From Candidatus Iainarchaeum sp. (GTDB lineage: Archaea > Iainarchaeota > Iainarchaeia > Iainarchaeales > JAXPJC01): a stretch of 64,000 nucleotides of DNA. The stretch lies in NCBI GenBank assembly GCA_016187745.1, contig JACPJC010000007.1:35429-99428 (forward strand), in the 5' to 3' direction. This document shows positions 25,653-50,657 of the stretch, piece by piece. Each line of letters begins with the position of its first letter. Within the stretch, counting starts at the first letter, position 1. Position numbers and translations under genes: made by a program. Below the pieces are notes generated by a model. It made no database searches, was not told the DNA's origin, and worked only from the letters and a program-made list of their open reading frames with translations.

Positions 25653-27941
25653 ATGAAGATTGGCGGATTGCAGGTTGGGGACTGGGCTGTAAAGGAATCC
25701 GGGGGAAAGCAGCACCTTATTTTTGACTGCAGGAACTGCCCCTATGGAACCTCATTTGTGGAGGACCCGCACTGCAGGTTCCATATTTTTGCCGCGCTGC
25801 TTGAAACCGAAGCGGATTTGGTTGTGCTTTCTGAAGTGTATGAAAGGGTATACAACGAGGCGCAGACAAAAATGATGAGCGAAATAGCAAAGCTCATGGT
25901 GAAATTTGAAACCGAGGCGATATGGAGCTATGCGCATCTGGGCGACCCCAAAATCGAGGGCGAGGAATTCTTCGGCGAAAGGCATGATGCGCTTGTAAAA
26001 GTTGCGCATGACATACTCGCATATGACCCTATAGCCGCTTACGTCCTCTGCCTTGAGGAAATAAAAAAGGAAAGGAACCGGCTTGCGAAAACCCCTGAAA
26101 ACACAAGGGCTGAGATATACCTGAATAATTTGGTTGCGCTGCGCGAAACAATGGAGCGCACGGAACTCATAGGAAAGGCGCGCGACATAATAATGCGTTT
26201 GCGCCAAATACCTGAAACAACTGCATTGTACCACTCATTTTTCGAGGCGCAGATTAAGCCGAGCTTCATAGGCTCAAGGCTGCTGTTTGAGGAAATGGAA
26301 AAACTGGAATTGCTTGATGAATACAATGTCGGCCAGTCTTCCGTTCAAATCTTCAAGCACCCGAGCAAGACGGAAAAATTATATTTCATAAACCCGCCGG
26401 AATACTCTCTCCCCCCGGACAAGTATTTCGTGCTGAGCAAAACGCGCGAGATTGTCGCGACCTACCAGCCCGGAAAGGCTTCCCTGAGCTCAACCGCAAA
26501 ATCGCGCAAGTATTTTGAGCGCATCTATCAGGCAAGCATAAGGGACATTTCAAAGCAGGCAAACATAAAAATGTCCCCCGAGGATGTCAACCAGCTTGCG
26601 GAGATTGTGGCGCGCTATACGGTAGGATATGGAATCCTTGAAATCCTTCTTTCGGACAGGAGAATTACTGACATTTACCTTGATGCGCCGATAGGGCAGA
26701 AGAAAGTGTATATTGTGCATTCCAAATACGGGCAGTGCGAAACGAACATCATTTACACGCAGGACGAGGCGAATGCGCTGGTTTCAAAAATGCGCGCAAT
26801 GTCCGGAAGGCCGTTTGATGAGGCGCACCCGGTTCTTGACCTTGACCTTGCGGAACTGGAAACTCGCGTAGCAGTTATCGGCCCTCCGCTTTCTCCGGAC
26901 GGAACAGCATTTGCATTCCGCCTGCATAAGGTAACCCCCTGGACGCTCCCGCAGTTCATTGACGCGAAGATGCTTACTCCGCTTGCAGCAGGGCTGCTGA
27001 GCTTTTTCATTGACATGCAGGCGACAATGCTAATTACCGGTTCTCGCGGATCAGGAAAAACAAGCCTTGCGGGATCCTTGATGCTTGAAATTCCTCAGAA
27101 TTCGCGCATAATAGTGCAGGAAGACACAATGGAAATTGCGGTTCCCTACATGAAGGAGCTCGGATTCAATGTTCAGAGATTAAAAACAAGAAGCCCTATT
27201 TCAATTTCAAAAACAGAAACCGAAGTGGCGCCGGAGGAATCGCTAAGAACTGCATTGCGCCTGGGTGATTCCGCGCTGGTTATTGGGGAAGTGCGCTCAA
27301 AGGAGGCAAAGGTCCTCTATGAGGCGATGCGCGTTGGGGCGGCAGGAAATATAGTAATGGGAACAATTCATGGAGACTCCGCATACAGCGTTTGGGACAG
27401 GGTTGTGAATGATTTGGGGGTTCCGAACACTTCCTTCAAGGCGACGGATGTTGTTGTTGTTGCCCGCCCAATAAGGTTCGCCGGCTCGTTGGAAAGGCAC
27501 AGGAGGATTGTGCAGATTACTGAAGTTGGGAAACACTGGACTGAAGACCCGGAAAAAGAGCACGGCCTTCTGGATCTTATGACCTATGATGCCGGAAAGG
27601 ACACGCTTGAGCTTAATGAGGCAAACATAAAGAAATCGGAATTGTTTGAGAGGATAATGAGCGTTTCGGGATTGTCCGCAAAGCAGATATGGGCGAACAT
27701 AGAGCTGAAGGCGAACTCAAAGGAATATCTTGTGCAATTGAAGAACAAATACAAAATCCCCCTGCTGCTCGAATCGGAAAATACGGTGCTTGCGAACAAC
27801 AAGCTGCTTCTCATAAAGGAGAATGCGCTGCAGAAGTATGGGGCGTCGGCAAACCTTGATTCTGTTCTGGGCGAGTGGAAGGAATGGGTTAGTTCTGTGC
27901 TTCTCAAGAGGGTGCTGGGCGCACAAATGAAGAAGGGATGA
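25653..27941 (+). CDS. Type IV pilus/T2SS assembly ATPase (VirB11/FlaI/TadA family)
   Basis: Walker A GSRGSGKT, QEDTMEI Asp box, ALRLGD..LVIGEVR, MGTIHG; N-terminal DCRNC..PHC. Confidence 0.95.
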   Translation: MKIGGLQVGDWAVKESGGKQHLIFDCRNCPYGTSFVEDPHCRFHIFAALLETEADLVVLSEVYERVYNEAQTKMMSEIAKLMVKFETEAIWSYAHLGDPKIEGEEFFGERHDALVKVAHDILAYDPIAAYVLCLEEIKKERNRLAKTPENTRAEIYLNNLVALRETMERTELIGKARDIIMRLRQIPETTALYHSFFEAQIKPSFIGSRLLFEEMEKLELLDEYNVGQSSVQIFKHPSKTEKLYFINPPEYSLPPDKYFVLSKTREIVATYQPGKASLSSTAKSRKYFERIYQASIRDISKQANIKMSPEDVNQLAEIVARYTVGYGILEILLSDRRITDIYLDAPIGQKKVYIVHSKYGQCETNIIYTQDEANALVSKMRAMSGRPFDEAHPVLDLDLAELETRVAVIGPPLSPDGTAFAFRLHKVTPWTLPQFIDAKMLTPLAAGLLSFFIDMQATMLITGSRGSGKTSLAGSLMLEIPQNSRIIVQEDTMEIAVPYMKELGFNVQRLKTRSPISISKTETEVAPEESLRTALRLGDSALVIGEVRSKEAKVLYEAMRVGAAGNIVMGTIHGDSAYSVWDRVVNDLGVPNTSFKATDVVVVARPIRFAGSLERHRRIVQITEVGKHWTEDPEKEHGLLDLMTYDAGKDTLELNEANIKKSELFERIMSVSGLSAKQIWANIELKANSKEYLVQLKNKYKIPLLLESENTVLANNKLLLIKENALQKYGASANLDSVLGEWKEWVSSVLLKRVLGAQMKKG

Positions 27942-27947
27942 TGAAAA

Positions 27948-30726: not shown

Positions 30727-30771
30727 AAACATTTATATATGAGTTTTGCATTATTTAATCGGTGGTTTAAG

Positions 30772-31308: not shown

Positions 31309-31367
31309 TTGCCTTTCTTTTTTTAACGCGGGAAATATTTATATACTCCAAATGCATTCATGTTAGT

Positions 31368-31526
31368 ATGCGCATAACTGATTTCCTAAGGGATGAAAAA
31401 GCCCAGAGCGAGTTCAGCTCCCTTTACATGCTAATAGTGCTGGTTATTGCGGCGCTTCTCATAATTACGCTTGTAAAGCCGATGTTCCGGCAGAGCCAGA
31501 AGATTGTAAGCAAAACCGTGAAATAG
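31368..31526 (+). CDS. Very small pilin-like protein (52 aa)
   Basis: MRITDFLRDEKA/QSEFSSLYMLIVLVIAALLII; TATA-like tttatata about 25-30 nt upstream. Confidence 0.75.
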   Translation: MRITDFLRDEKAQSEFSSLYMLIVLVIAALLIITLVKPMFRQSQKIVSKTVK

Positions 31527-31529
31527 AAT

Positions 31530-32078: not shown

Positions 32079-32090
32079 GAGCAAGGCAGA

Positions 32091-33268: not shown

Positions 33269-33269
33269 A

Positions 33270-34061
33270 TTGCGGAAACTAAATAGCAAGGGCCAGGCGG
33301 CAATTACTGATGCGCTGTTTTTCCTGCTGATAGTTTCAGCGCTTGCAACACTGCTCTTTCTCTTCATAAACCAGTACGGGATAATGGTTTCCGATGAGGT
33401 AAAGCGCTCTTATGGGACGGATTATGCGTCTTCTGCATTGAAAACAATCCTATATGGCAGCGTTCCGAGGAATGCCGGTGAAAAGCTTGCGGATGCGGAA
33501 ACCCAGGAGATTGATTATCTGCTTGCCGCAATAAAGGAGGATTATGCCTATGCGAAGGATGACGGGAAGCAAAGGCTCAGCCCTGAAATGCAGAAAACCC
33601 TCCATAGCAATATTTCCGCAATAATGAAGCCGCTTTCAGAGCAGTTTGACTATTTGTTTTATGTTTACAGGATCGATTCCCCAAGCGATGCGGATGAGTT
33701 TGCCTATCTGCTGCTGCACATAAGCGGGTGCAAAGCGGAAATCAGCTCCTCCGAGTTCTGCCCAGAGGGCGAAGGAATCCATGCGGATTACCTCTGCAAT
33801 CCCAAAACGCTTTCCGGGCAGTCCGCAGTTTCCTCAACCCTTGATGCGCTTACAATGCTGATTCCGAATTCCGCGCAGTCTGTAAGCAGCATTCTCCTCT
33901 CAAAAGTTGCAGATTCCGCAAGCAGCCCGAAAACAGTCCCTGCGCGCGCTGCAATTATGCTCTGGCCTGCGGTTTATCTCAAGCAGAACGAAACAGGGGA
34001 TTTCGCCTCAGCGCCCTGGAACTGCTGCGACGCCTCAAAAACATACTGCCCTGCAGGCTAG
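33270..34061 (+). CDS. Minor pilin-like protein
   Basis: NSKG/QAAITDALFFLLIVSAL; Cys-rich C-terminus. Confidence 0.82.
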   Translation: MRKLNSKGQAAITDALFFLLIVSALATLLFLFINQYGIMVSDEVKRSYGTDYASSALKTILYGSVPRNAGEKLADAETQEIDYLLAAIKEDYAYAKDDGKQRLSPEMQKTLHSNISAIMKPLSEQFDYLFYVYRIDSPSDADEFAYLLLHISGCKAEISSSEFCPEGEGIHADYLCNPKTLSGQSAVSSTLDALTMLIPNSAQSVSSILLSKVADSASSPKTVPARAAIMLWPAVYLKQNETGDFASAPWNCCDASKTYCPAG

Positions 34062-36053: not shown

Positions 36054-39000
36054 ATGATTATTATGGGAAAAAACAAGGAAAGGCTTGAAAATGCACTGCA
36101 GATTGCATTGCACTTCCTCATAATATTCCTGCTTATCGGCATGAATTTCTCATTTGCATTTTCCCAGAGCCCGGGAACAGATGCCGAAAAAGAAGTGAAG
36201 TCCGAGTCCTTCTCATGCAATACTGCAAAAATTTCCCCTGAGGAAATTGAAAAATTCAAGAACGAGGTTTTTGTGAAGGGATTTGACGGCAACGCAATAA
36301 GCTCCGGCACCCCCGCAAACAGCGACCGGGATGCGTTGGACAGCAACAGGATAATCCTTACCTCGGAGGACAGCAATACCGCAGTAAAGGCGGAAATTCC
36401 CTCCGAAAAAATCTCACCGTTTGAAGTTTCGCATTTGCTCGGGGATTATGGGAAGGGGGCATTTGCAATAGGCCTTGTGCTGGATGATTCCCTGCGCACA
36501 GGGCGCTGCAAGAACTTCGAGACCTGCCCATTGACCGGAAGCAACCTGAAGCTGAGGAATTCAGGAACCGGCTTCATCGAGGAGACAAAATCAATTTTTT
36601 CAGATTTGCTCGATGGCAACAAGTACAGGATTGAGGCCCTTACTGAGGAAGACAAAAAGCTCATTGACGCGCAGCTATATCTGGATGAGAACAAGTTTGA
36701 TGCAAAGACGTTAAAAAGGATAGAGAGCGTCATAATCCCGAACTCAATCCTTGCGGATTCTTTCACAGCGAAAATGGAAACCAACTGCAGGAATTCCGGC
36801 TGCTTCATAAATTCCTATTCATTGTTTGACAAATACTTCAATGCGTGGTTTTCATTGGACATGGTTGTGAGCAGCTTTGCCCCCACGCTTTTCAGCAATG
36901 CGCGCAAGATGATGGGATGGGGCGCAAGAAGGGGCTGGCCATGGCACATGAATGAATTAGGATTTTACAAGAAGTTCAAGGAGGCTTTCTACAGCACGGA
37001 TTCCCTTACAGGGAAGGCGAATCTTGTGAAGATGGACACGGACATACAGAAGTATGGGCTGGGGGTTGTTTTTGAGGATCTTGTTGATTCGAGCAAGGGC
37101 TACAGGCTCATAAGAAGCGGCCCATTTGCGGACTGGCTTTATTCCTCGCTTGAGTCAGGAAGCCTTTCAAAGCTGAAAACCCCGCAGCAGAGGGCCGCGC
37201 TTGTAAGGGTAATAAAGCGCATTAACAATTACGGGCAGGCGATAAACTATAAGAACAAGGAGCTGCAGGATGTAATGAACAAGGCAATAAAGCAGTTCGG
37301 CCCCGATTCCCAGCAGGCAATGCAGGCAAGGCTTTCACTCTCGCAGTATCTTGCAAAGGTTGGGGTGGAAATGGATGACAAGCTGCATCTTGATTTGCCC
37401 GAGTTCTGGATGCGCTATGGCTCCACAAATTTATATCCCTATTCTTTCATGAACACATTGACAGGGGAAACGCACTCAATAACCTCCCAGGCGCGCTATA
37501 TGAGGCAGAATGTTCTCGCCCCATTCTATGAGCAGTATGACGGGGCCGTGGACGAATTCTACAAAATAGGGAACCGCTGGAAGCCCAAGGCTAGCTGCCC
37601 GAAATGCATTTTCGAAACCAATGGCGCAGGGGACCTGAAGCTATATATACCCTCTCCGCAGGACTACTTTGGAAGAGTGGATGTGGACAAGCTTGAAACT
37701 CTTTTAAGCAGCGGAATAATTGACCTTACAGTGAAGATTCCCGCAAAGGAGCAGTACATAATGGTCAATAGCGCAAACTTAAAGCTCATAAAGGAATACG
37801 GCGCCCCGCAAGTTGAGGTTTACAGGGTAGGGAAAGTGGTTGATTCCGGGAAGGTTCTGACTCCGGAAATGCTCGCAGGCACAATGACTGACAATTACTT
37901 CCCCACAAGGGTATCAAAGGTATACGGGAATACAACAATTATGCTTAACACGCTCCTTGAGCAGGGCTGGGAAACAAGGCGTTACGCTTCATTGCTTGAT
38001 AAAATAATGGCAGAGGAATCAGAGCTGATAAAGGCGTATTTCTCATTCCCGAAAGGGGCAGCAAAATGGACTGCCCTTCCCTATGTTTATTGGGCCGGAA
38101 AGCGCGGCTTCGGCTCTGAGAATTTCTCCGCATACCAGCTCCCAACCTCGTGGCGCAGCATTGAATTCCGGCCCGCGGAAGGGGAAATATACAATGACGC
38201 GTTCATTGATTTCTTTGCGAATGAAGGATCGGACCAGGGGGATTTGTTCATAAGGGTAATAAACAACCTCCCCTGGAAGATGGTATTGAATGCCGCTGTT
38301 GAGAATTTCGCCCCGCTGAAAAACATGTATGACAAATTAACAAAGGGCGAGCTGCGCAATGAAGTGGAGAACCTTGCGCTCTACATGTCCGCCCCTGAAG
38401 AATGCGAGGACTGCACATTCACACTGAAGAGCACAAATCTCAGGGATTTTTCCCCGTTCTTCTTTTCAAACAGGGAGCTGAAATCCTATTTATTGGAGGA
38501 CATTGAAAGCGACAAGGCAAAGAAGATTGGCCAAACACTCATAAGCTTTGCCCATCACACAAATATGGAAGGCTCAAACGAGTCCGGCGGCAACAAGGAA
38601 GGGATGATTGACCTGCTTGCCGCAAGGAAGGACGGAAAAACATGCGCCCAGAAGATTGCTGACCTGCATATAGCGGGGCTGCCCCTCGGAAGGGCAATTC
38701 CAAAGGGCCTGCAGGGCCCTGAAATAGGGGCAATACTTGCCATTTCTGAAAGCATAGGCTATTTCACATTCATGTGGTCAGGCATTCTGGGAAGCGTTGT
38801 GCAGCAGGTTGTTATTACCCCGCAGCTCCATGAATGCGTTGATGACGAGCAGGGATATTACACGCATTATTTCGCTCCTGCAAAAAGCGAAGCCGCAGAC
38901 AAGAAAAATGCGACGGAGCTTTCAACGCAGAACGTTTCGAATATGATAAAGGAGAATGCGGACAAGTTCCTAAGCTCATTCCAGGGCGATGAGAATTCAC

Positions 39001-40559
39001 TCACAAGGGATGCGATAGAAAAAATCGGGAAAGGCATTGACAAGCTTGCCGGCGCTTCTACAGATTCGGACATAATACAGGCAAGCCTCACAACCTTCGG
39101 GCAGAGCTCAGGGCAATTGCGCGGAAAACAGCTGTTTTATTTCTGGTGCCAGCCGGGGTGCGAGCTGCACAAGTCAGAGTATCCAACGGAAGGGAGGATG
39201 GTTGTTTCCGATGAGAACGGGAGCAGCGCCGAGTTTGACTACGAGAGCGGCATATTGAGCATAAACGGCAGGCCTGTAATTACAAACCCCGATTCCGTAA
39301 GGCTTTCCTACACTGATACGAGGATTCCCGCAATTGTAATTCCCAATGCGATAACCCACATTTCGCTGCCTGATTCAAATGCGCTGGTATTTGAAATTAC
39401 CGCAAAGGGGGAAGCCTTTGTAAGGGACAAGCAGGTATTGGAGTGCATAAAATCAGGGGTAAAGGAGCAGAGCGGATTGGAGCTTAATTCTGACGAGCTC
39501 AGCGAGGCATTTGGGAATGTTGAGATGGTTGTTACTGATTCGCATCCCGGGGTGAAGCCATTGCAGGACAGGATTGTTGCCGAGGGAACCCCGAGAAAAA
39601 TCGCCGAAGGCGCAGATGCAAGAATAAACATATTCGCGAACAAGGAAGTGCAGCTTTCAAAATCAAATGATGCCGATCCGGAAATAGGGAAGCTGAAATC
39701 CATACAGTTCAAGAACGGCTCAATTGTTTACAATCCTGAAAAGGATGAGCTGCTCGTACTGTTGAGGCATCATGAGAATGCAATACTGCAGCAGAACGAT
39801 GTCGCAAACCTCAATGCAAAGCTTACGGATACGACAAACCCGATTACGAATTGCACGGAGCCGGCGATAGATTTGAGCGTTGCAGTAAACGGCGCTTCAG
39901 ATTCAGCAGTCCAGGGCAGCAAGGAAGAGCAGTTCAACAAGGCCCTGCAGCATTACGGCCCATACCAGGTGTTTGAAACGGATACAAAAAGGTTTGTGAT
40001 TTATTCAAAGCTTGATGGCGGGGCATGCAAGGACTATTTCAAGGTAATAGACAAGGACACGGGGGAGGTTCTTGTTGATTCGCCAATAAAGGAGATTGTC
40101 CAAACGCCCGATGGCAAGATAAAAATCATTACAGAAGACGGGAAGGCGCACGAGCTTGAATTCTCCTCCGACAACGGAAGGCCAATACTCACATACAACG
40201 GCACTCCTGAGAATTTGAGATATGCGCAGGGAAGGAACGGCGCATTCTGGTATGACCCTGAGAAGGGATTATGGTATGCGGAGAACGGCCAGCTATTGCC
40301 TTTGTTGGAGGCTTTCAGGCAGCAGGGCATTTCAACCCAGGCAAGGCCTGATGGAAGCGTTTCTTCCACTCCGGGAGGCAATTTCATGAATGTAAACCTG
40401 GGCGAGCAGCAGGGCTTGGGATTCAACCTTCCAAGCCTGCCCGAGAATGCGCTTTATCTGTTCATGTTTGTTTCCGCAATGGTTGCAGTGTTTGTAGTAA
40501 TAAGAATAAGAAAATCAACAACGCTTGTGCATAAAAAATTTACTGCAAGGCGGCCTTGA
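36054..40559 (+). CDS. Large secreted protein with C-terminal membrane anchor (1501 aa)
   Basis: Signal peptide ending FSFAFS; paired Cys; C-terminal LPSLPE + TM + IRIRK. Confidence 0.9.
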   Translation: MIIMGKNKERLENALQIALHFLIIFLLIGMNFSFAFSQSPGTDAEKEVKSESFSCNTAKISPEEIEKFKNEVFVKGFDGNAISSGTPANSDRDALDSNRIILTSEDSNTAVKAEIPSEKISPFEVSHLLGDYGKGAFAIGLVLDDSLRTGRCKNFETCPLTGSNLKLRNSGTGFIEETKSIFSDLLDGNKYRIEALTEEDKKLIDAQLYLDENKFDAKTLKRIESVIIPNSILADSFTAKMETNCRNSGCFINSYSLFDKYFNAWFSLDMVVSSFAPTLFSNARKMMGWGARRGWPWHMNELGFYKKFKEAFYSTDSLTGKANLVKMDTDIQKYGLGVVFEDLVDSSKGYRLIRSGPFADWLYSSLESGSLSKLKTPQQRAALVRVIKRINNYGQAINYKNKELQDVMNKAIKQFGPDSQQAMQARLSLSQYLAKVGVEMDDKLHLDLPEFWMRYGSTNLYPYSFMNTLTGETHSITSQARYMRQNVLAPFYEQYDGAVDEFYKIGNRWKPKASCPKCIFETNGAGDLKLYIPSPQDYFGRVDVDKLETLLSSGIIDLTVKIPAKEQYIMVNSANLKLIKEYGAPQVEVYRVGKVVDSGKVLTPEMLAGTMTDNYFPTRVSKVYGNTTIMLNTLLEQGWETRRYASLLDKIMAEESELIKAYFSFPKGAAKWTALPYVYWAGKRGFGSENFSAYQLPTSWRSIEFRPAEGEIYNDAFIDFFANEGSDQGDLFIRVINNLPWKMVLNAAVENFAPLKNMYDKLTKGELRNEVENLALYMSAPEECEDCTFTLKSTNLRDFSPFFFSNRELKSYLLEDIESDKAKKIGQTLISFAHHTNMEGSNESGGNKEGMIDLLAARKDGKTCAQKIADLHIAGLPLGRAIPKGLQGPEIGAILAISESIGYFTFMWSGILGSVVQQVVITPQLHECVDDEQGYYTHYFAPAKSEAADKKNATELSTQNVSNMIKENADKFLSSFQGDENSLTRDAIEKIGKGIDKLAGASTDSDIIQASLTTFGQSSGQLRGKQLFYFWCQPGCELHKSEYPTEGRMVVSDENGSSAEFDYESGILSINGRPVITNPDSVRLSYTDTRIPAIVIPNAITHISLPDSNALVFEITAKGEAFVRDKQVLECIKSGVKEQSGLELNSDELSEAFGNVEMVVTDSHPGVKPLQDRIVAEGTPRKIAEGADARINIFANKEVQLSKSNDADPEIGKLKSIQFKNGSIVYNPEKDELLVLLRHHENAILQQNDVANLNAKLTDTTNPITNCTEPAIDLSVAVNGASDSAVQGSKEEQFNKALQHYGPYQVFETDTKRFVIYSKLDGGACKDYFKVIDKDTGEVLVDSPIKEIVQTPDGKIKIITEDGKAHELEFSSDNGRPILTYNGTPENLRYAQGRNGAFWYDPEKGLWYAENGQLLPLLEAFRQQGISTQARPDGSVSSTPGGNFMNVNLGEQQGLGFNLPSLPENALYLFMFVSAMVAVFVVIRIRKSTTLVHKKFTARRP

Positions 40560-41893: not shown

Positions 41894-42022
41894 GCTTGAA
41901 TAATAGAACGCATAACAGATTTAAATATCTTACTGGGGGCTGCATTCTTTCAATAATGCCGCAGATTTGCACTTAATAGTATGCCATTAAATAGCTTTTG
42001 CATGCTGTTGTTTATGATGCAT

Positions 42023-42307
42023 ATGCAAAAAGCAAAGGCAACCACGATGAGCTTTTCCGCGGAGCCGGAATTTGTGAGGATGATTGGCAGGGTAATTTCA
42101 AAGACCGGGGCATACCACTCAAAAAGCGAATTCCTGAGGGATGCGGCAAGGCAGAGGGCAATACAGCTCATGGGGCTTGAGGATGAGCTGAAGCGCGTTC
42201 ATGAAGTGACAAAAGAGCTGAGGAAGAAAGTGAAGTTTGTCAGGGAGCTGACGCCTGAGGATAAAGACGAAATTGCAGAAAAATACCTCAAACAAATTGG
42301 CCGATAA
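42023..42307 (+). CDS. Ribbon-helix-helix (CopG-like) regulator/antitoxin
   Basis: TTMSFS..GAYHSKSEFLRDAAR. Inverted repeat TTTTGCAT (41996-42003) / ATGCAAAA (42023-42030) overlaps the likely start. Confidence 0.8.
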   Translation: MQKAKATTMSFSAEPEFVRMIGRVISKTGAYHSKSEFLRDAARQRAIQLMGLEDELKRVHEVTKELRKKVKFVRELTPEDKDEIAEKYLKQIGR

Positions 42308-42737
42308 ATTCACTTGGTGTCATGCACCTCATAATATTGCCCGCTTTTTCGAAATCCTTTACATTCCACGTAAGTATGAAGTCGCAATTGCATTGCTTGG
42401 CAATTGTGGCATGTAATGAATCCGTGTAATGGAGGCCTGTCTCCTTTGTTGTATCAAATGCCTCTTCCAGCCATGCCAATTGCGGTTCATTTACCTCTTC
42501 AATGTAAATTACGTTCTTATATAGTATTTCAGAGGCGGATTCCCTGTCCAAGCCGCATGCCTTCCTGATTTCATCAAAAAACAAATAGGAAACAACAACT
42601 TTTATTCCGGCACTATTGCATATTGACAAGGCGGCTTCTGCGTCCCTGAAAAGCATTCTGAAATTCCCGTCAATCTCCTCCCTGACTAAAGAAACAAAAA
42701 CATTGGAATCAAGATATATTTTCTTTATTTTCGGCAT
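42288..42737 (-). CDS. PIN-domain (VapC-like) protein
   Basis: IYLDSNVF, FFDEI, TDSLHATIA, LTWNVKDF. Confidence 0.9.
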   Translation of the reverse strand: MPKIKKIYLDSNVFVSLVREEIDGNFRMLFRDAEAALSICNSAGIKVVVSYLFFDEIRKACGLDRESASEILYKNVIYIEEVNEPQLAWLEEAFDTTKETGLHYTDSLHATIAKQCNCDFILTWNVKDFEKAGNIMRCMTPSEFIGQFV

Positions 42738-43652
42738 TTACAGCACCTGCGCAATCATGTAGACTGCGAAGCTCAGCGGCATCATGATGCACGCGTAAAT
42801 AACAGCCTTCTTGATGTTGTTTTCCATGTTCGCTATGAAGAAGCTTGCGAGGAGCGCATATTCCGCAATATACAGCTGGTTTGCAAGCATTGCCGCACTG
42901 AGAAGCGCCCTTCTCTCCATTGCACCCATTCCTATCTGCAGGAAGTCCGCCTGCACAAAATCAAGCTTTATGACCAGCCCCACAAGCAGCCCAAGCACTA
43001 AAGGGACTATAATGCCTCCGGCAAGAATCAGGGTATATTTTTCAATGGTCATTGTGGCTATGCGCTCCCTTATTATCCCGCGCGTTTCCAGCATGTCCTC
43101 CGCAGCTTCCCTGAATATTTTTGACATTTTTGCGCCGGAATTATATCCCTGTATTATCAGCTCCAGTGCGCGGGAGAGTGTTTTTGACTTGTTCCTGAAG
43201 GACATGTTCTTGAGCGCGGTTTCAACGCTTGCGCCCTTTCTTATTTCCGCCAGCGCCTTTCTGAATTCCCCGGAAAGCGCGCCGTAATCCGCATTTGAGA
43301 GATACTCAATTATTTTTATTGCTTCAGCGCTTTCGGGGAAAATGCTTGCCTGCAGCAGGAGGTCAGGAACCGCGCCTTCAATGGAGCGCCTGCGCATTTC
43401 AAACTTATATAGCAGCAGGAAATATCTGCCGAATGCAAAGAGGAGCGCGGATGCAAGCGCTGCGGAAAGGGCATAAAAGGCGCTCTGGGAGAGATAGAAT
43501 GCAAGCGCAGAGGCGAATGCGGAAAGCGCAATCGCGCACACCAGGATTCCCCTGAGGAATTCCCCCGCATTCCCTTTTGCATTTGTCTGCCTCAGCATAA
43601 GCCCAATTTTATCCGGGAAATTCCCGCCCGGCAATGCGCCCTTCCCTTTCAT
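42738..43652 (-). CDS. Type II secretion F / TadC-like membrane protein
   Basis: IEGAVPDLLL, YGALSGEF..EIRKGASVETAL, followed by TM helices. Confidence 0.9.
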   Translation of the reverse strand: MKGKGALPGGNFPDKIGLMLRQTNAKGNAGEFLRGILVCAIALSAFASALAFYLSQSAFYALSAALASALLFAFGRYFLLLYKFEMRRRSIEGAVPDLLLQASIFPESAEAIKIIEYLSNADYGALSGEFRKALAEIRKGASVETALKNMSFRNKSKTLSRALELIIQGYNSGAKMSKIFREAAEDMLETRGIIRERIATMTIEKYTLILAGGIIVPLVLGLLVGLVIKLDFVQADFLQIGMGAMERRALLSAAMLANQLYIAEYALLASFFIANMENNIKKAVIYACIMMPLSFAVYMIAQVL

Positions 43653-44405
43653 TCAGTTCCCCTTCAGGAATTCTGGCGTCCTTGCCCTTATGTAAAGCAA
43701 AACAGCAAAATCAAGCGCAGGAAACAGCAGCGCAACTATCAATAGTATTTGCAGCGCGCTCAGCTCCAATGCAAGGAAGGCGCTCCCCACGATTATGAAT
43801 GCCTGGAAAAGCGCCGGCACAATGGCGGAAACAGCAATGAACATCAGTGAAAAAACAACAAGCTTGTTGCTGAACTCCTTAGATTCGGAATGCTGCCTGA
43901 GGAGCATTTCATGAGCAAGCCTTTTCAGCGGGGAGGAACTTCTCTTCCCAGAGCCCTGCTCATATGCCGCAACAATCTGGGTTATTGCCCTCTTCACATC
44001 AAGCGAATTTGCCCTTTCCGAAAAGCCGAACAGCGCTTCCTGCACGGAAGAGCCGGAATCCCTTATTTCAGAGACGATTTTCCTGAATTCCATTGACACA
44101 AGGCCGTAATCCTGCCCTGCGATGTTCCCAAGCGCTGTTTCGAACTGCACATCCATTTCAGTTTCTACCGCAAGGGAAAGAAGGGCAAAAGGCATATCCT
44201 TCTCAATCAGCAGTGCGTATTTCCTTTTTTTTAGCTTCGGGTAATATTGCAGTGCGGAATAAGCAAGCGCAAAAACAAGGATTGCGGGAACTAGCGAAAG
44301 CGCAATCTCCTCAAGCAGGAGCGCTGAGGCAAACCATGCGCACAGCGCTGCAATTGCGGAATGCCTGAAATTCCTATCCTGAAGAATTTTTCCATTGTTT
44401 CTCAT
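43653..44405 (-). CDS. Type II secretion F / TadB-like membrane protein
   Basis: IEKDMPFALL, YGLVSMEF..GSSVQEAL, followed by TM helices. Confidence 0.9.
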   Translation of the reverse strand: MRNNGKILQDRNFRHSAIAALCAWFASALLLEEIALSLVPAILVFALAYSALQYYPKLKKRKYALLIEKDMPFALLSLAVETEMDVQFETALGNIAGQDYGLVSMEFRKIVSEIRDSGSSVQEALFGFSERANSLDVKRAITQIVAAYEQGSGKRSSSPLKRLAHEMLLRQHSESKEFSNKLVVFSLMFIAVSAIVPALFQAFIIVGSAFLALELSALQILLIVALLFPALDFAVLLYIRARTPEFLKGN

Positions 44406-46119
44406 TGCGTTTCATCTCCATGGTGAAATCGGAATTGCTGAACCCATGGCATTTCATTATTTTTCCCAGAACTCTTGCGCTTTTGTTCCTTGCAACCAGG
44501 CGGCCTTTTTTGTAGTCATATTCATAAAGAACATTCAGACCTGCCGAATTCCCCTTCCCCTGCACTTCCGCAATCTCGGTTATGCGCCTTATCTCCCTGT
44601 GCCCTGAATTTTTTCCGATTACGTTCCAGCGCCTCTGCACCAGAACCAAATCTATTGAGCAAAGGTCAATATCATCAATGCCAAGGCTTTTCAGCCTTAT
44701 AAGCGCCTCATTTGCTGACTGCGCATGGAAGGTTGCATAGCTCCCCTTCCCCTGCCCTGCAAGAAGCGTGTCAATAAACGCCTTTGCCTCCTCGGAATTC
44801 CTTATTTCCCCCACTATTACCCTATCAGGGCGCATGCGCAATGTGTCAACAATCAGCTCCGGCATCCTTATCTGCAGGCCATCAGCAACATTCAGCCTGA
44901 CAACATGCCTGTGCCGCAGATTTATTTCAGGCGTTTCCTCAGTCACTATTATGCGCTCGCTCTCCGGGATGAAATTGAAAAGCGCGTTCAATGTAGATGT
45001 TTTTCCGGAGCCCGTATTGCCGCATATCAGCATGGAACAATCAGTCTGCAATGCAAACTGGAGGAAGGCAAGCGCATTTGCGGAAATTGTTCCAGTATCA
45101 AGCAAATCCTTCGGGGTAAATGGAACTTCCCGGAATTTCCTTATTGTAAGGCTTGGCCCCGAAACTGAAACAGGGGAAATTGTGGCGCATATCCTCTCCC
45201 CGGAAGGAAGCGCGGCATTCAGCTTGGGGGTCTGCATGCTGAGGCGCCTTCCAATTGCACGCGACATCCTGTTCACGAGGTTCTTTAGCGTTGTTTCGTC
45301 GCAGAAATAGAAATTCGTCCTCAGCCAGCCCAATTTCCTCTCATAAACATAAACCGGCTTGTTTTTTCCCAGCCCAATAACCGCAATCTCCTCAAGGTTT
45401 CCATTGCCCAGCAGTTCAGAAATTGCCCCAAATCCGAATACAAGCAGTTCCAGAATCTTCAGCAAATAATTATGCTGCGCTCCCTCAAGCTCAAGGAAAT
45501 TCCTATGGCAATAGCGCCTCAGGCTTTCCTCAAGCGCGCGCGGCTCTGCCTCCTCATTTTTCTCCTGGAATTCAGAAAGCACAGAGCTGAGAAGCAGCGC
45601 CTCCTGCCTTGTAAGCTCGGGGATTCCTTGAATGCAGTAAATAAGCCCTTCCGTTGTTTCAATTATCTCATAATTCGCGCCATGTGCAATGGATTTTCTT
45701 TTATCCGCATCTGCAATTTTATATATGCGCCAGCCCAGGATTTTCTCAATTTCATCAATTTCAGACTCTGATTTGCACATCTTCAATGCCCTTTTACCGC
45801 ATGCGGAAATGCAGGGCATTTTGAAATCATTCAGGGCGCACAGGTCGCACTTAACGGCCTTTCCATCAACAACAGAAATCGCGCCGTAGTTGCAGGCATC
45901 CGCGCATGCGCCGCAGCCGTTGCATTTGCCCCCTGCATCAACAGCCAATATCCCCTGTGAAACCTCATATATTGCGTTTCTCCTGCAGGCAAGAAGGCAT
46001 TTTGCCTTCTCAGGGGCGCAATGCCTGCATTTTAGGAGCGCAATCCCGCTCAATTTGTGCCTGCAAACAGCCAGGCATTTCCCGCAGGAATCGCACGCAT
46101 CAGAAACAACAAGCTCCAA
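44374..46119 (-). CDS. TadA/VirB11-like pilus ATPase with N-terminal 4x[4Fe-4S]-type ferredoxin domain
   Basis: Four 4-Cys groups in the first ~110 aa; Walker A GNTGSGKT, EETPEI, LRMRPDRVIVGEIR, ATFHA. Confidence 0.92.
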   Translation of the reverse strand: MELVVSDACDSCGKCLAVCRHKLSGIALLKCRHCAPEKAKCLLACRRNAIYEVSQGILAVDAGGKCNGCGACADACNYGAISVVDGKAVKCDLCALNDFKMPCISACGKRALKMCKSESEIDEIEKILGWRIYKIADADKRKSIAHGANYEIIETTEGLIYCIQGIPELTRQEALLLSSVLSEFQEKNEEAEPRALEESLRRYCHRNFLELEGAQHNYLLKILELLVFGFGAISELLGNGNLEEIAVIGLGKNKPVYVYERKLGWLRTNFYFCDETTLKNLVNRMSRAIGRRLSMQTPKLNAALPSGERICATISPVSVSGPSLTIRKFREVPFTPKDLLDTGTISANALAFLQFALQTDCSMLICGNTGSGKTSTLNALFNFIPESERIIVTEETPEINLRHRHVVRLNVADGLQIRMPELIVDTLRMRPDRVIVGEIRNSEEAKAFIDTLLAGQGKGSYATFHAQSANEALIRLKSLGIDDIDLCSIDLVLVQRRWNVIGKNSGHREIRRITEIAEVQGKGNSAGLNVLYEYDYKKGRLVARNKSARVLGKIMKCHGFSNSDFTMEMKRNEKQWKNSSG

Positions 46120-46225
46120 AACTCACACCCCTCTATATACGTCTATTGACGTATATATAGGAGCACAAGAATTAATAAACCTATGCACCAATCCTTTCTT
46201 TTTTAGGAAAAAAGAAAGTCTAGGT

Positions 46226-46275
46226 TAAAACATTAAGCACACAAAGTTTGCAAGCTAGGCGTGCTTAATGTTTTA
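46226..46275. repeat. 15-bp perfect inverted repeat with 20-nt spacer
   Basis: TAAAACATTAAGCAC (46226-46240) / GTGCTTAATGTTTTA (46261-46275). Confidence 0.85.
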
Positions 46276-46382: not shown

Positions 46383-49300
46383 CTATCTTCGTCTCATTAT
46401 GAGGAAGTAGTAGGCCGCCCCCGCTATTATTATGAGTATTACTGCAATTCCGCCAATAAGCGTCCAGTCTGGTCCTGCGGCTGCTGCCTCAGCAGCTTCG
46501 CACGCCCCATCAACGCAGCTTTCCCCTGATGCGCAATCAGCATCTGCTGTGCACTCAGCTTCAGGAGCAATTTCCACGCAGTCCCCTGCCGAGCATTCCA
46601 TATTGTCTCCGCAGGATGTGCCATCTGCTTTAGCAACATTGCTTACTGTGCCTGTTGTTTCGTCGCAGGAATCGGCAGTGCATGGATTTGAATCATCAGA
46701 ATCAACGCCATCGCACAGGCTCACTTCAGTTTCCTGCAGGTCTGCTACCACAGGCGCCTTATATGAAGCAATCGCATTGCTGTCAATCTGCTTCTGCACA
46801 GTGTATGTCACTGATGTTGTTTCCCCAGGAGCAATGCTCGGAACTGTGAATTCCACAACAGGATCATCCACAAGTATGGTGAATGCGAACTCGCTTGTAA
46901 TTTCAGTCGCGCTCAATGCAACGGTCTTCGGAATGGTTTCAATGACCTTCACATTCTCAAGATTCTTAGTGCCCGGGTTCTCAACCTTGAGTGTGATATT
47001 CGAGTAATAGGTTATTACATTGGTTGTTGAAGTGCTCTTTACTACTTGTATGTCGCGCACAACATTGCTCAGTTCCTCGGCTGCCTTTGCCCTTTCTATG
47101 GCAGCCTCTATTCCATCCGCAGGCGCAATAACTGAGAACGCATTGTAAAGTATCTCGGAAATTACATCCTCTGTCGGCGCATAAGGTGTTGTGTCAGTTG
47201 TTACGGTCTCTTCAGTCGGAGTGGTTGTAGGTGTTGTTGGCCCTGGTCCGCCGCTTGGACCGCTACTTGGCCCTGAAGTGCCTGTAGTGCTGCAGCTGCT
47301 TGTTCCGATTGTCTGGCTCTTCTCCGAGCTGTTAAGATCGGCATTATTTGTTGATTTAAGATACAGTGTATATTGCCTTCCGCATGCAAGGCTAGAGAAT
47401 GTATAGCTTGTATTTATCCCGTTATTAGTATAAAGTCCTGTACTATCAAGCCTTACCCAGAAGGCCTTTATTCCGCTCTGGCTGTCCGAGCCCCCATAGG
47501 TCATTATAATCTGCGAAGTTACTGTTGCCCCATCAATTGTTGGATAATTGATGGTTGCAGTTGGCGCTGAATTGTCAACATTGAAGCTGAACTGGCTGAC
47601 ATTCGCATCAGTTGCAAGCCAGCCGCCCTTGTTCTCGTTCAAATCAATCACAATATTGTAATTGCCATCAGCCAATGCGCTAGTGCTCCAGTCATATGAG
47701 CAGTTGGCATCAATTGCGCTGTTCTGGTCTGCCAAGTTAGTATCCTGCTTGCAGTTTGCCCTTGTTGCAAGATTCAGGTCATTTGTTATAAGCGTTCCAT
47801 AGCCATTGAACAGGTTATTGTCAGTGTCATAGTAAATGTCTGCGAGCAGGAAGTTCCCGTCTGATTTGTTGTAATCATACCAATCAGGGTCATTTACATT
47901 GAAATCAATCCTGTAAGTTCCGCTGATATATGAAGTTGCATCAAGAGGCCTGTATATTGTTGCTGTCGGCCTCCTGTCCTCAATAAATACTGTTCTCGGG
48001 GTATAAACCGCGCCGAAATTATTTGTGTCAATTCCTACATAGTATTCTCCCTTTATCCTTCCGGTCCTTCCCCCGACAAGCGCAACTGACATGTTTACAT
48101 CAGCGCTGCAGTTCATGTCCGAGCTGTTTCCATCAGTTCCCGGCCCTACATTGCCATCAAGGCCTCCAGCGCCGCGTGTATTGCAGAATGTCGGCTGGGT
48201 AACATTTGCGTCCAGGTTCAAATCAACCAAAAAGCGCGCCCTGTTTCCATCATACAAGTTAGCATCAATCCCGTTGTTCCTGTTGTTGTCAACATCAATA
48301 AATACAGTGAATTTGTTCATGTTGGACATTCTGTTTGTGTTTATGTTGTTCAGGTTGAAGTCATAGCGCATATTGAAATCAATTGTAAATACTAAGTTTG
48401 TGTCGCTCTTTCCGTCTCCCTGGGTGCCTGTGCCGTTAATCAATGCGGCCGGCGAGAGGACGCTTATCTTCGGGGTGTTGATAATTACATTATTGTCAGT
48501 TGAATCAATCAAGTAATTTGCGTAATTCCAGTCCATTACATTAAGGTCAATCCAGTACACTCCTGCAGGAACATTCGCATCCCAGGAGTATGAGCACACC
48601 TGTATTGTTGCAAGGTTAAGGTCGGAATCTGCGCAGCTTATGTTGCCATCTACGCCTGTATTGTTCAGGTAATCAAGTATGTTTGTGTCATCAACAATTA
48701 ATTTGTAGCCTGTTGTGTTGTTGTCAGAGTAGTAGAGTGCTGCCCTTCTCCTGTCCCTTGATTCATTCGTGTCCTGGAAATTGAATGTTATCAGTATGTT
48801 TCCATCAACTTTCCTGTAGATTGTTGTTCCGCCGTTCGGAGAAACAATATTCGCATCAAATGTAACCGTTCCATAGGTTGAGAATGTGCTTACCCTGAAG
48901 AATATGTTTCCGTCTTTTGTAACAGAGTTCCATACCCATGTAAGCTGGCCGTAAACATCCGTTGTGCTCGCGCTCACAGGGCTTGTTCCGTCCCTGTTCT
49001 TGCAGAACTGCACCGGGCACCTGAAGCCGTCCCTTGCAAGCACAGGCATCTGCCCCGAGGGGCTGCGCACATTAAGAAGCGTAATATTTGCATCAATTGC
49101 GAATTCTGGCATGCTTGCTGTGTCCATGCTTGCCTGTCCCTGCCTTCCCTGCATATTGGAATCATAGTTCCTGCTTGGGCCCTGGCCCATATTTACCCCT
49201 GAATTCATTGCAATATTCACATCATTGCCCATTGAGATTACAAGGTTACAGACGGAATTCATGTCTGAAATGTTCCCGTCGCGCATTGCCTGCGAGATTG

Positions 49301-50657
49301 TTATGTATTTGGCAATTTGTGTTGTGGAGCATGCTGCTGCGCTTCCGCTTGTTGTCAGTCCTGCAGAAGTAATTCCAACAACAACATTCTGGTCTGTTTC
49401 AGTCATTGTTACCGCAGGGAACGCGTGGAAGTTGGAATCTCCGCCAAACATGAATGCATCATTTATATCTACTACTCCAGAGCCGGGATTTGCAGCGCTG
49501 GTGCCTGAATATGCGTAGTTTACATCAATTACATCCCCATAAGCCCCGCCAATTGTTGCATCGCTAGGCACAAATATATTTACATCAAACCCTCCAGTCC
49601 TTACAACGCTATTCGGGCCGTTCCTGTAAAAGCCCCAATTTTTGTTTCCTGGGGTTTCAGGCACAAAGCCGTTTGTGTCGTTTGTATCAATGTGTACAAG
49701 CGTTCCATTGTTGTCCCTTGCCACTACGCCTTTGTTCTGGTCAGTGCCTCCGGTATTATAATCAGCCTTGGTATTCAAATCGTAAATGCTTCCATTGCCA
49801 TCAGCCCTCATATTCACATCTGTTCTTACAAGGCCATTGGTGCCTGTGCGCTTCCAGCCAATCCATACATTCGCATCCCTTGGGAAGCCCACTCCGCGCA
49901 GCATCACATTGTTGTCGCTTCTGCTGCCAAATGGCGCAAGGAAGCCAGAAAACCTGCCGCCTGCCCTAGTATTCAGCACAGCAATGTAAGGGGTAATGAA
50001 AATAGGCGTATTCATTTGTATCCTGCCTGCAGCATAGTTTATGTCTGTAAGGTAATTGCCAGTGTATGGCGCAGTGTTGTTCTTTAACCTATAAGCATAA
50101 ATGTACTTGTATCCTGGCTTTATCCATTTAGGCAAGACAAAATTTACATCAAACGAAACAGCAGGATTTCCAAAGCATGTTGAGCTTACTGCGCGTCTTG
50201 CCTGCACATAATAGCCTGCGAATTTTCCGCTTGCCTTGTAAGATACACCATTCAGGTCGCTGTTCAAATCCCCCTTAACGGCAAAGTTGTTTGAGTCATT
50301 CTGGGCATTTAAGTCTGCTGGGGCAAAAACATTCTCATCGCATAATCGGGCGCTTCCCGCCGTTACATTATTGCCATCGGCATTGTTATCTAGGATGTTC
50401 AAATCCCTTCCGCCCCAATAGTTTATGTCATCTGTTACATCATTAATGGTCCTGTTGGCATCAACAATGACAAACACAATGTTCTGGTCGCCCAAATCAT
50501 CTGGGTCAAAGTTGACTCCGCGGATGTTTACATTTGCATCGGCAGTGTAATAATTCGCATCAACAGTGTCAAAGGTTCCGTTGAATGCAGCGCCCGCATA
50601 GCTCAGCGCAACAAGTAGAATCGCAATTAGAATTGCAAATCTGCTAAAACTCCCCAT
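46383..50657 (-). CDS. Large D-x-N-rich cell-surface (S-layer-like) protein, 1424 aa
   Basis: Signal peptide (SYAGA), Asn/Asp-rich beta domains, Gly/Ser/Thr/Pro linker, Cys-rich repeats, C-terminal TM + RRR; T-rich terminator-like tract downstream. Confidence 0.9.
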   Translation of the reverse strand: MGSFSRFAILIAILLVALSYAGAAFNGTFDTVDANYYTADANVNIRGVNFDPDDLGDQNIVFVIVDANRTINDVTDDINYWGGRDLNILDNNADGNNVTAGSARLCDENVFAPADLNAQNDSNNFAVKGDLNSDLNGVSYKASGKFAGYYVQARRAVSSTCFGNPAVSFDVNFVLPKWIKPGYKYIYAYRLKNNTAPYTGNYLTDINYAAGRIQMNTPIFITPYIAVLNTRAGGRFSGFLAPFGSRSDNNVMLRGVGFPRDANVWIGWKRTGTNGLVRTDVNMRADGNGSIYDLNTKADYNTGGTDQNKGVVARDNNGTLVHIDTNDTNGFVPETPGNKNWGFYRNGPNSVVRTGGFDVNIFVPSDATIGGAYGDVIDVNYAYSGTSAANPGSGVVDINDAFMFGGDSNFHAFPAVTMTETDQNVVVGITSAGLTTSGSAAACSTTQIAKYITISQAMRDGNISDMNSVCNLVISMGNDVNIAMNSGVNMGQGPSRNYDSNMQGRQGQASMDTASMPEFAIDANITLLNVRSPSGQMPVLARDGFRCPVQFCKNRDGTSPVSASTTDVYGQLTWVWNSVTKDGNIFFRVSTFSTYGTVTFDANIVSPNGGTTIYRKVDGNILITFNFQDTNESRDRRRAALYYSDNNTTGYKLIVDDTNILDYLNNTGVDGNISCADSDLNLATIQVCSYSWDANVPAGVYWIDLNVMDWNYANYLIDSTDNNVIINTPKISVLSPAALINGTGTQGDGKSDTNLVFTIDFNMRYDFNLNNINTNRMSNMNKFTVFIDVDNNRNNGIDANLYDGNRARFLVDLNLDANVTQPTFCNTRGAGGLDGNVGPGTDGNSSDMNCSADVNMSVALVGGRTGRIKGEYYVGIDTNNFGAVYTPRTVFIEDRRPTATIYRPLDATSYISGTYRIDFNVNDPDWYDYNKSDGNFLLADIYYDTDNNLFNGYGTLITNDLNLATRANCKQDTNLADQNSAIDANCSYDWSTSALADGNYNIVIDLNENKGGWLATDANVSQFSFNVDNSAPTATINYPTIDGATVTSQIIMTYGGSDSQSGIKAFWVRLDSTGLYTNNGINTSYTFSSLACGRQYTLYLKSTNNADLNSSEKSQTIGTSSCSTTGTSGPSSGPSGGPGPTTPTTTPTEETVTTDTTPYAPTEDVISEILYNAFSVIAPADGIEAAIERAKAAEELSNVVRDIQVVKSTSTTNVITYYSNITLKVENPGTKNLENVKVIETIPKTVALSATEITSEFAFTILVDDPVVEFTVPSIAPGETTSVTYTVQKQIDSNAIASYKAPVVADLQETEVSLCDGVDSDDSNPCTADSCDETTGTVSNVAKADGTSCGDNMECSAGDCVEIAPEAECTADADCASGESCVDGACEAAEAAAAGPDWTLIGGIAVILIIIAGAAYYFLIMRRR

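Follow-up and report, generated by a model that had tools for sequence, protein, structure and literature searches.

A predicted four-cluster iron-sulfur domain fused to a pilus assembly ATPase in Candidatus Iainarchaeum and related archaea

The gene at 44374..46119 on the reverse strand of a 64,000-nucleotide stretch of DNA from Candidatus (Ca.) Iainarchaeum sp. (contig JACPJC010000007.1 of assembly GCA_016187745.1, positions 35,429 to 99,428; hereafter the window, by which we mean the whole stretch) joins a small N-terminal domain, with four ferredoxin-type cysteine motifs, to an ATPase of the kind that assembles type IV pili. The fusion is real and recurrent, and it is not an assembly artifact. 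Its N-terminal domain is predicted to carry four [4Fe-4S] clusters in the manner of electron-transfer subunits, and we tentatively suggest that it could act as an input domain for the pilus motor. The original prediction, made from the DNA letters and their open reading frames, had placed sixteen cysteines at about 45790-46100, in frame with an intact ATPase; they are found at nucleotides 45799-46095 (-), within a single open frame of 581 codons that begins with TTG and contains no internal stop. The features of the fusion gene and of the two genes that follow it are these:

44374..46119, reverse strand: fusion gene, four-cluster iron-sulfur domain (predicted) plus T2SSE-type pilus assembly ATPase; 581 amino acids, stop codon at 44374-44376
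45769..46119, reverse strand: predicted N-terminal iron-sulfur domain, residues 1-117, from cysteine conservation, fold model and ligand covariation
44377..45738, reverse strand: ATPase body, residues 128-581, from the conserved LGW motif onward, placed by the starts of unfused relatives and by fold matches
44632..45306, reverse strand: Pfam T2SSE match, residues 272-496 (E = 2.3e-39, 135.5 bits, cutoff 24.9)
44998..45021, reverse strand: Walker A loop GNTGSGKT, residues 367-374, from sequence and from conservation in fused homologs
44800..44832, reverse strand: RPDRVIVGEIR, residues 430-440, in the Walker B region, from conservation in fused homologs
43653..44405, reverse strand: platform gene 1, 250 amino acids, one T2SSF domain (PF00482, 27.2 bits, cutoff 25.2)
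42738..43652, reverse strand: platform gene 2, 304 amino acids, one T2SSF domain (PF00482, 42.9 bits, cutoff 25.2)

Recurrence and integrity of the fusion

A search with the whole protein scored 7999 candidates, of which 2829 were relatives at E ≤ 0.001; our counts rest on the 120 listed, in which the query was substituted for its identical self-hit, P0002. At least 15 of the N-terminal cysteines are present in 70 of these 120 proteins (self-hit included) and 12-13 in another seven, mostly N-truncated gene calls, while the domain is absent from the remaining 43. When residues 1-120 alone were compared with 1.84 billion representatives, 963 matches were obtained at E ≤ 0.001. The best 150 of the 963 include 23 proteins of at least 465 amino acids, and 21 of the 23 are T2SSE fusions (a Pfam run was positive in 17 of 19, and precomputed Pfam annotation served for four); the two long exceptions are a MinD/CbiA-Fer4 protein (P0216) and a flavoprotein with a Fer4_11 domain. 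A word-indexed search with the same residues gave 13 matches of 319-1017 amino acids, every one with PF00437. The ESM Atlas (score 0.98) points to a cluster of 184 archaeal members in which T2SSE is found in 100% and Fer4 in 83%, with Ca. Iainarchaeota as the commonest phylum and '4Fe-4S ferredoxin-type domain-containing protein' as the automatic name.

Taxonomy was taken from the organism names printed in the search records. Named fused proteins among the 120 listed are labeled Ca. Diapherotrites or Ca. Iainarchaeum in nine cases and plain 'archaeon' in two, and the closest relatives, which include P0007 (labeled Ca. Diapherotrites), are 81-90% identical to the query. A second search, with a profile built from 16 distant fused proteins, added fusions with all 16 cysteines that are labeled Ca. 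Micrarchaeota or Micrarchaeia (P0140, P0274 and P0283). One record, P0290, is labeled Methanopyri archaeon; it has 806 amino acids and all 16 cysteines, the domain lying behind an N-terminal extension. Apart from the Methanopyri-labeled record, the fused proteins that carry an informative name are thus from DPANN archaea, and the concern raised with the original prediction, that homologs might never be fused, is answered by the recurrence of the fusion in many contigs and sources. A genome scan with the patterns LRMRPDR[IV][IV] and LAGQG[KR]GS[YF], both of which lie in the Walker region, matched at least 608 stretches and returned at least 79 loci, all of those listed being unfused distant relatives, mostly bacterial CpaF/TadA; no listed match begins before query residue 91.

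Unfused relatives begin at or just before LGW (query residues 128-130), and the iron-sulfur domain is thus a clean N-terminal add-on. Fused and unfused proteins interleave on a tree of the ATPase: the unfused label changes 16 times, with at least seven changes forced by supported branches (FastTree, Shimodaira-Hasegawa-like support, midpoint root; the deep fused rows were chosen through their iron-sulfur domain, and some 'unfused' rows, such as P0006 and P0089, are truncated calls). This interleaving argues that the domain is dispensable for the core motor, as would be expected of an input domain. Our reading of the pattern is an ancient fusion followed by repeated loss, an order of events that we infer.

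The TTG start is supported by three observations: an in-frame TGA lies two codons 5′ of it; a Shine-Dalgarno-like GAGGGGTG box, read by eye, lies 7-14 nucleotides upstream, at 46126-46133 (-); and homologs start M-[RKE]-L, about eight residues ahead of the first cysteine. We considered whether the fusion might be an artifact, the N-terminal region being untranslated (with the true start at Met101 or Met114) or the junction misassembled. Such an account could appeal to the TTG codon, residue 101 being the first in-frame ATG, and to the homolog P0006 (481 amino acids), which is annotated from the equivalent internal methionine and begins MPCISAC. It has to contend, however, with a frame that is open from the upstream TGA onward, with a ribosome-binding box in position, with the retention of the region and its invariant cysteines in the 70 homologs from many contigs and sources, and with an N-terminal domain that folds at a mean predicted local distance difference test (pLDDT) value of 93.4. 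We regard the artifact as very unlikely, and close to refuted. The methionine from which P0006, a close homolog, is annotated lies within motif IV, its counterpart being residue 101 of the window protein (nucleotides 45817-45819). Gene callers that avoid TTG starts would in this way cut off the iron-sulfur domain and under-count the fusion.

The nucleotide-binding motifs of the ATPase are intact. In 59 fused homologs G367, N368, T369, S371, G372, K373 and T374 are invariant, and G370 nearly so (at least 90%); also invariant are R389, E394, E395, T396, P397 and E398, then R430, P431, D432, R433, E438 and R440, and finally G459, S460 and H465. We take these residues to be the Walker A, Asp box, Walker B and His box of the enzyme. 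An AlphaFold2 model of the full-length protein (mean pLDDT 91.6, predicted TM-score 0.80) has the two-domain fold of solved T2SSE members, and its best matches in the Protein Data Bank (PDB) are archaeal afGspE (2oap; E = 2.5e-35, TMt 0.69-0.70), FlaI (4ii7/4ihq) and CpaF/TadA (8rkd_A/8rjf; TMt 0.71-0.72). A short helix, residues 118-128, links the two parts of the protein and is well modeled (pLDDT block means 86-95). The earlier name, TadA/VirB11, holds at the level of the superfamily (PF00437) and fails at the level of the equivalog, since the protein scores below every named NCBIfam equivalog cutoff, including those for FlaI (NF058587, 185.6 versus 550) and TadA (TIGR03819, 172.4 versus 373.15). 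By sequence, then, the ATPase is a member of the T2SSE superfamily that is neither a TadA nor a FlaI equivalog.

Two T2SSF genes had been predicted to follow the ATPase, and both pass the family cutoff. Platform gene 1 overlaps the end of the fusion gene, stop codon included, by 32 nucleotides, and platform gene 2 abuts platform gene 1. According to one survey, a split platform is a hallmark of Epd-like and Tad systems (PMC6668835), and a 2026 survey reports an archaeal 'system 1' with a split platform in DPANN archaea, in which ATPase and platform genes are adjacent and pilins scattered (PMC13705601). Judged from gene order and domain content, the ATPase and its two single-T2SSF platform genes match this system 1 (Epd/Tad-like) layout. 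What the locus shares with system 1 and Tad (TadA/CpaF-TadB-TadC) is the T2SSE ATPase and the two separate one-T2SSF platform genes; what the window protein adds is the N-terminal domain, with its four predicted clusters. In the archaeal loci with an unfused ATPase that were examined from the genome scan, two single-T2SSF genes follow it in 12 of 12. No pilin, prepilin peptidase or FlaH/TadZ-like gene was recognized beside the fusion locus in the window.

The iron-sulfur domain and its predicted clusters

The sixteen cysteines fall into four motifs: C9-x2-C12-x2-C15-x3-C19 (motif I), C31-x2-C34-x6-C41-x3-C45 (motif II), C66-x2-C69-x2-C72-x3-C76 (motif III) and C91-x2-C94-x8-C103-x3-C107 (motif IV). 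The domain was tested for the motif order CX2CX2CX3C, CX2CXnCX3C, CX2CX2CX3C, CX2CXnCX3C, and it has that order. In a local alignment of the 74 homologs of at least 545 amino acids, ten of the 16 cysteines are present in all 74, and the other six in 72 (C107), 71 (C19), 67 (C9 and C15 alike), 66 (C12) and 61 (C31); the misses are mostly gaps that stem from N-truncated gene calls or from a shifted CxC form of motif II. A seventeenth cysteine, C115, is unconserved (2 of 74). Identity to the query ranges from 33 to 80% in the N-terminal domain and from 42 to 84% in the ATPase, so that the two are similarly conserved. Fer4 families appear in the precomputed annotation of many of the homologs.

Sequence and fold relatives of the domain converge on a single class of protein. 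In NCBIfam, residues 29-117 align with the corresponding region of YgfT/AegA, of DmsB (positions 62-152 of 161) and of NrfC, and a sequence search of the PDB found HycB3 of the hydrogen-dependent carbon dioxide reductase (HDCR; E = 2.9e-7) and PsrB (2vpw_B, E = 4.1e-6, query 30-107 against 57-135). An AlphaFold2 model of residues 1-120, built from a 71-row alignment, reaches the mean pLDDT of 93.4 given above. Compared with the PDB by Foldseek, the model has 24 matches at E ≤ 0.001, the leaders of which are all four-cluster electron-transfer subunits, with TMq of about 0.69-0.78: WOR5-B (6x1o_B, 0.77), HDCR HycB3 (7qv7_A, 0.76) and HycB4 (0.69), HycB of formate hydrogenlyase (7z0s_B, 0.71) and PsrB (2vpw_B, 0.70), with the small subunits of tungsten aldehyde oxidoreductases (9mqx_G/E, 8c0z_C) and FdnH (1kqf_B) also among the top matches. 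The conclusion that the N-terminal domain is a compact four-cluster module of the DmsB/HycB/PsrB class is supported by sequence comparison and modeling alike. The cysteine layout had originally been likened to that of DmsB, CooF and HydN, a likeness that the profile matches, the PDB sequence search, the fold matches and the ligand covariation described below all uphold; the accompanying word 'polyferredoxin' proved too loose, the domain being one compact four-cluster module and not a set of MvhB-type tandem repeats.

With DmsB, HycB (HydN), PsrB and NrfC subunits the domain appears to share motif order, fold, significant sequence similarity and nested ligand sharing. It differs from them in being far more compact, at 107 residues, with a spacing between motifs I and II that is about 25-30 residues shorter, and in being fused to a motor ATPase instead of belonging to a molybdo- or tungsto-enzyme or a hydrogenase. 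In stand-alone DmsB-like matches it is residues 55-140 that align with query residues 29-114. Closest among free proteins are archaeal ferredoxins of 128-155 amino acids (P0128, P0137, P0169 and P0181), which have both the spacing of the fused domain and its CxHCxPExAxC motif II; one of them, P0128, is 45% identical to the window domain over residues 2-112. Unlike the fused domain, they are free proteins with a C-terminal tail. This compact family of four-cluster archaeal ferredoxins is the likely source of the fused domain. The Atlas places the domain nearest to automatically named clusters of 'PFOR-associated PorF' (PFOR, pyruvate:ferredoxin oxidoreductase) and to similar 142-amino-acid proteins of Methanobacteriota; kinship with PorF is possibly indicated, and we take the score of 0.87 on which it rests as a lead.

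Three other identities for the cysteine-rich region were tried and rejected. (i) A match to an MvhB-type polyferredoxin (E = 4.8e-10) proved to be made up of ten weak stretches that each fall short individually, and the domain has four motifs only and a nested fold. (ii) A tandem pair of clostridial 2x[4Fe-4S] ferredoxins is ruled out by the fold matches and by the covariation pattern. (iii) The zinc-binding cysteine cluster of bacterial PilB/GspE lies in the C-terminal domain and has four cysteines only, and a cluster of that sort was rejected.

The pattern in which cysteines are lost is informative about how they are shared. In DmsB-type proteins the ligands are wired in a nested fashion, each cluster taking the first three cysteines of one motif and the fourth of another: I(1-3) with IV(4), II(1-3) with III(4), III(1-3) with II(4), and IV(1-3) with I(4). 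All 16 cysteines are kept in 89 of 131 aligned N-terminal domains. Eight variants (P0048, P0129 and P0295-P0300) have the first three cysteines of motif I replaced, and all eight keep I(4) and lack IV(4); P0154 has lost two of the three, together with IV(4). In P0312 and P0302 it is II(4) and III(1-3) that are lost, while III(4) is kept. Two proteins depart from the pattern: P0098 and P0125 have an intact motif I and lack IV(4) only. The loss of I(1-3) with IV(4) maps to four lineages of a FastTree built from the ATPase cores, and supported branches force at least three of these. Since the losses match the nested wiring, one whole cluster disappearing each time and its neighbors staying intact, nested ligand sharing is supported. 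We consider this covariation good evidence, at the level of sequence, that the cysteine motifs form real [4Fe-4S] clusters, and cluster binding is accordingly predicted for the window protein.

The same alignment holds natural three-cluster variants of two types, one predicted to lack the cluster of I(1-3) and IV(4), the other that of III(1-3) and II(4). These homologs are ready-made controls for deciding which clusters matter.

Possible functions of the fused domain

We tentatively favor, at somewhat short of even confidence, the view that pilus assembly is gated by the iron-sulfur module, acting as an input domain for redox state or oxygen. The clusters would be reduced by the low-potential ferredoxin pool that the 2-oxoacid:ferredoxin oxidoreductase metabolism of these fermenters would maintain, and oxidized or destroyed by oxidants such as O2. 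The linker helix (residues 118-128), which is short and rigid, and a surface of the ATPase body on which the domain would dock could relay the state of the module to the motor, altering the activity of the hexamer or its engagement with the platform, such that a filament would be built only when the module is reduced and the cell energized. Domains added at the N-terminus of ATPases in this superfamily commonly serve for sensing or docking. In a relative from Ca. Micrarchaeota (locus L007), a gene at 7409-8083 (+) with two CBS domains and a winged helix overlaps the start of an unfused ATPase; pilin-like genes precede it, two T2SSF genes come after the ATPase, and a separate sensor or regulator thus occupies the position that the fused iron-sulfur domain has in the window. 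By analogy, the add-ons found elsewhere and the CBS/winged-helix gene of L007 would favor a reading of the domain as an input device.

Docking of the N-terminal domain on the ATPase body, which gating would exploit, is weakly supported by modeling. Co-folded as separate chains with four 4Fe-4S ligands, the two parts gave a score of 0.33 (runs of 0.11, 0.33 and 0.35), the best control giving 0.01; contact agreement among the docking runs was at least 92%, and partner pLDDT at least 89. Of 80 solved complexes 58 reached the docking mark, as did two of 110 mismatched pairs; this calibration set was folded without ligands and without custom alignments, and passes at or below 0.60 comprise only seven of the 80 solved complexes and both of the passing mismatches.

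Several observations weigh against redox or oxygen gating, the weakness of this docking result among them. The residues that directly follow the fourth cysteine of motifs I-IV are R, R, N and G, although the family consensus has CP in motif I. The window protein also scores under the gathering cutoffs of the Fer4-family Pfam models (LdpA_Fe-S-bd, 20.6 versus 27.6; Fer4_7, 19 versus 27; Fer4, 18.1 versus 21.1), whereas homologs pass Fer4_11, with its cutoff of 26.2 (P0129, 55.1; P0233, 50.8; P0190, 40.2). One cluster would suffice for a sensor, and the strict retention of four might be explained equally well by a wire or by a requirement of the fold. Finally, no redox partner gene adjoins the fusion locus within the 64-kb window.

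Strict retention is, in fact, what would be expected if the clusters served only to hold together a small rigid domain that the platform or an accessory protein contacts, redox signaling playing no part: in 107 residues with 16 cysteines the clusters are the core, and folding alone would conserve every ligand. Such a structural or docking role seems to us unlikely, though it has real arguments behind it. The 2026 survey proposes that where archaeal pilus ATPases have additional domains at the N- or C-terminus, these serve as interfaces for subsystem-specific partners (PMC13705601). Iron-sulfur domains do occur on P-loop nucleoside triphosphatases (NTPases), as in ABCE1, a distant fold match of our domain (6tmf_d, rank 50, E = 0.15), and in the MinD/CbiA-Fer4 protein P0216, and the docking score, 0.33 against 0.01, would suit an interface as well as a relay. 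But iron-sulfur clusters are costly and oxygen-labile where zinc ribbons do the same structural job, and the fold is specifically that of electron-transfer chains. Moreover, the 43 relatives among the 120 listed that lack the domain, and the 12 of 12 unfused archaeal loci that keep the same two-platform layout, imply that no essential interface depends on it.

The resemblance to electron-transfer chains raises the contrary question, whether the domain conducts. A four-cluster chain might carry electrons through the motor, either from ferredoxin to a partner in the membrane or the filament or around a 24-cluster ring in the hexamer, and ATP hydrolysis might gate this flow or be coupled to it. 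The close structural relatives are electron-transfer subunits without exception, and HycB3/4 of HDCR (7qv7) and the aldehyde oxidoreductase subunit (8c0z_C/9mqx) come from enzymes that reportedly polymerize into conductive filaments. All four clusters appear to be kept in the 89 of 131 domains, the nearest kin among stand-alone proteins are small ferredoxins with four clusters (P0128), and the neighboring Atlas clusters, as a lead, are PFOR-associated and PorF-like (0.87). Against conduction, no cytochrome, hydrogenase or quinone-site protein was found at the locus, so that an acceptor is not evident; three-cluster variants persist from which an end or a middle cluster has been dropped, and the loss of a middle one would break a wire; and many relatives have no such domain at all. 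We think that an electron conduit is quite improbable. Bolder still, and in our estimation a long shot, is the notion that a hexamer with 24 [4Fe-4S] clusters might be at once a redox and a mechanical machine, in which ATP cycling would gate electron flow, as in enzymes of the nitrogenase Fe protein type, or in which the chains would pass electrons from the ferredoxin of the symbiont to the platform, the filament or a partner cell. If that were true, chains that deliver electrons outward would link DPANN pili to electron exchange with the host.

ABCE1/Rli1 and MinD-type ATPases resemble the window protein in carrying a ferredoxin-like 4Fe-4S domain on a P-loop NTPase. They have two clusters where the window domain is predicted to have four, and their ATPase folds and cellular roles are unrelated. 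The nearest precedent is AapX, an iron-sulfur protein that, like the window domain, is associated with the type IV pilus machinery of an archaeon: in two reports, AapX is a component of the Sulfolobus Aap pilus operon whose deletion abolishes pilus assembly, its role being unknown (PMC11178785, PMC13705601). AapX (arCOG07320) differs from the window domain in being encoded by a separate gene and in belonging to another pilus subsystem, a comparison made here by description only.

The original prediction knew of no characterized example of the fusion, and our literature searches have likewise turned up none. No paper was found that describes an iron-sulfur or ferredoxin domain on a type IV pilus or T2SSE ATPase, word finds in the accessible portions of three surveys included (PMC4858521, PMC6668835 and PMC13705601); tables S4 and S5 of the last, on DPANN pilus genes, may list such genes. 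That survey reports no evidence that the ATPase gene has been either split or fused, and the N- and C-terminal extensions discussed there are unnamed (PMC13705601). Databases do label the fusion automatically, the Joint Genome Institute as 'Flp pilus assembly CpaF family ATPase/Fe-S-cluster-containing hydrogenase component 2' and UniRef as '4Fe-4S ferredoxin'. With automatic labels in place and no paper found, the architecture is catalogued yet uncharacterized.

It is known that added domains can convey chemical inputs to the ATPases of type IV filaments, and we found none reported with a redox cofactor. Conserved in two DPANN phyla, the fusion would offer the clearest handle yet on whether redox chemistry controls archaeal pili or involves them. 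It argues that an iron-sulfur module can act directly on an assembly ATPase, which bears on why the Aap pilus needs AapX. The pili of DPANN symbionts are thought to mediate contact with the host; redox gating, if true, would tie attachment to anoxic, energized conditions. The fusion protein is small and soluble, and its function is testable in vitro.

Surroundings of the locus

The window contains a second, separate type IV pilus locus at 25653-34061 (+), and an RNA or DNA element lies immediately 5′ of the fusion gene. Their features are as follows:

25653..27941, forward strand: second pilus locus, T2SSE ATPase of 762 amino acids
27948..30269, forward strand: second pilus locus, T2SSF platform protein of 773 amino acids
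46126-46165, reverse strand: upstream hairpin built on a perfect palindrome (46134-46157), from palindrome search and RNA folding

The second locus continues with a run of small open reading frames, at least four of which (starts at 30262, 30739, 31530 and 33270) have a KGQ-type class III signal and a hydrophobic helix. These pilin-like frames, at 30262-34061, belong to the second locus and not to the fusion locus. The N-terminus of the second-locus ATPase has a CxxC...HC patch and is free of iron-sulfur motifs.

The palindrome 5′ of the TTG codon reads TATATACGTC-N4-GACGTATATA; it is unique in the window, and none of 100 shuffles matches it. It extends to a 17-bp hairpin whose 3′ arm is the GAGGGGTG box, and the RNA fold has z = -4.68, none of 200 shuffles folding as well. 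Compared with Rfam, the upstream region gave nothing above gathering (best 24.8 bits versus 81), and a scan for sigma-70 promoters and terminators gave counts no higher than the shuffle means and is uninformative for an archaeon. The hairpin may be a promoter or operator (TATA/operator) element, or it may exert translational control by occluding the ribosome-binding site. Farther upstream, at 46229-46272 (-), an inverted repeat seen by eye, AACATTAAGCAC...GTGCTTAATGTT, has a 20-nucleotide loop and a short T run and lies about 110 nucleotides past the stop of the gene for a 1424-amino-acid protein; this terminator-like repeat suggests a separate promoter for the ATPase operon.

That 1424-amino-acid protein, encoded directly upstream of the ATPase, has D/N-rich repeats, a signal peptide, a C-terminal membrane anchor and, near its end, cysteine-rich repeats. 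It is one of six very large predicted surface proteins in the window (1-2697, 4235-12160, 15934-24060, 36054-40559, 46383-50657 and 56339-59269), which range from 899 amino acids (open-ended) to 2708, a high load for a single 64-kb window. Three of the six have CarboxypepD_reg, bMG3 and SpaA-type Ig-like domains, and one has fn3. On the other side of the fusion locus, a PIN-domain gene at 42288-42737 (-; E = 2.8e-5) abuts platform gene 2 with zero gap, and its end is overlapped by a convergent open reading frame of 108 amino acids at 41981-42307 (+), which, read by eye, might be an antitoxin-like partner. Just upstream of a large surface protein gene, at 50786-52162 (-), lies a gene for a membrane protein of 458 amino acids with a GIDE-like region (29.8 bits) and a C-terminal LemA domain (103.8 bits).

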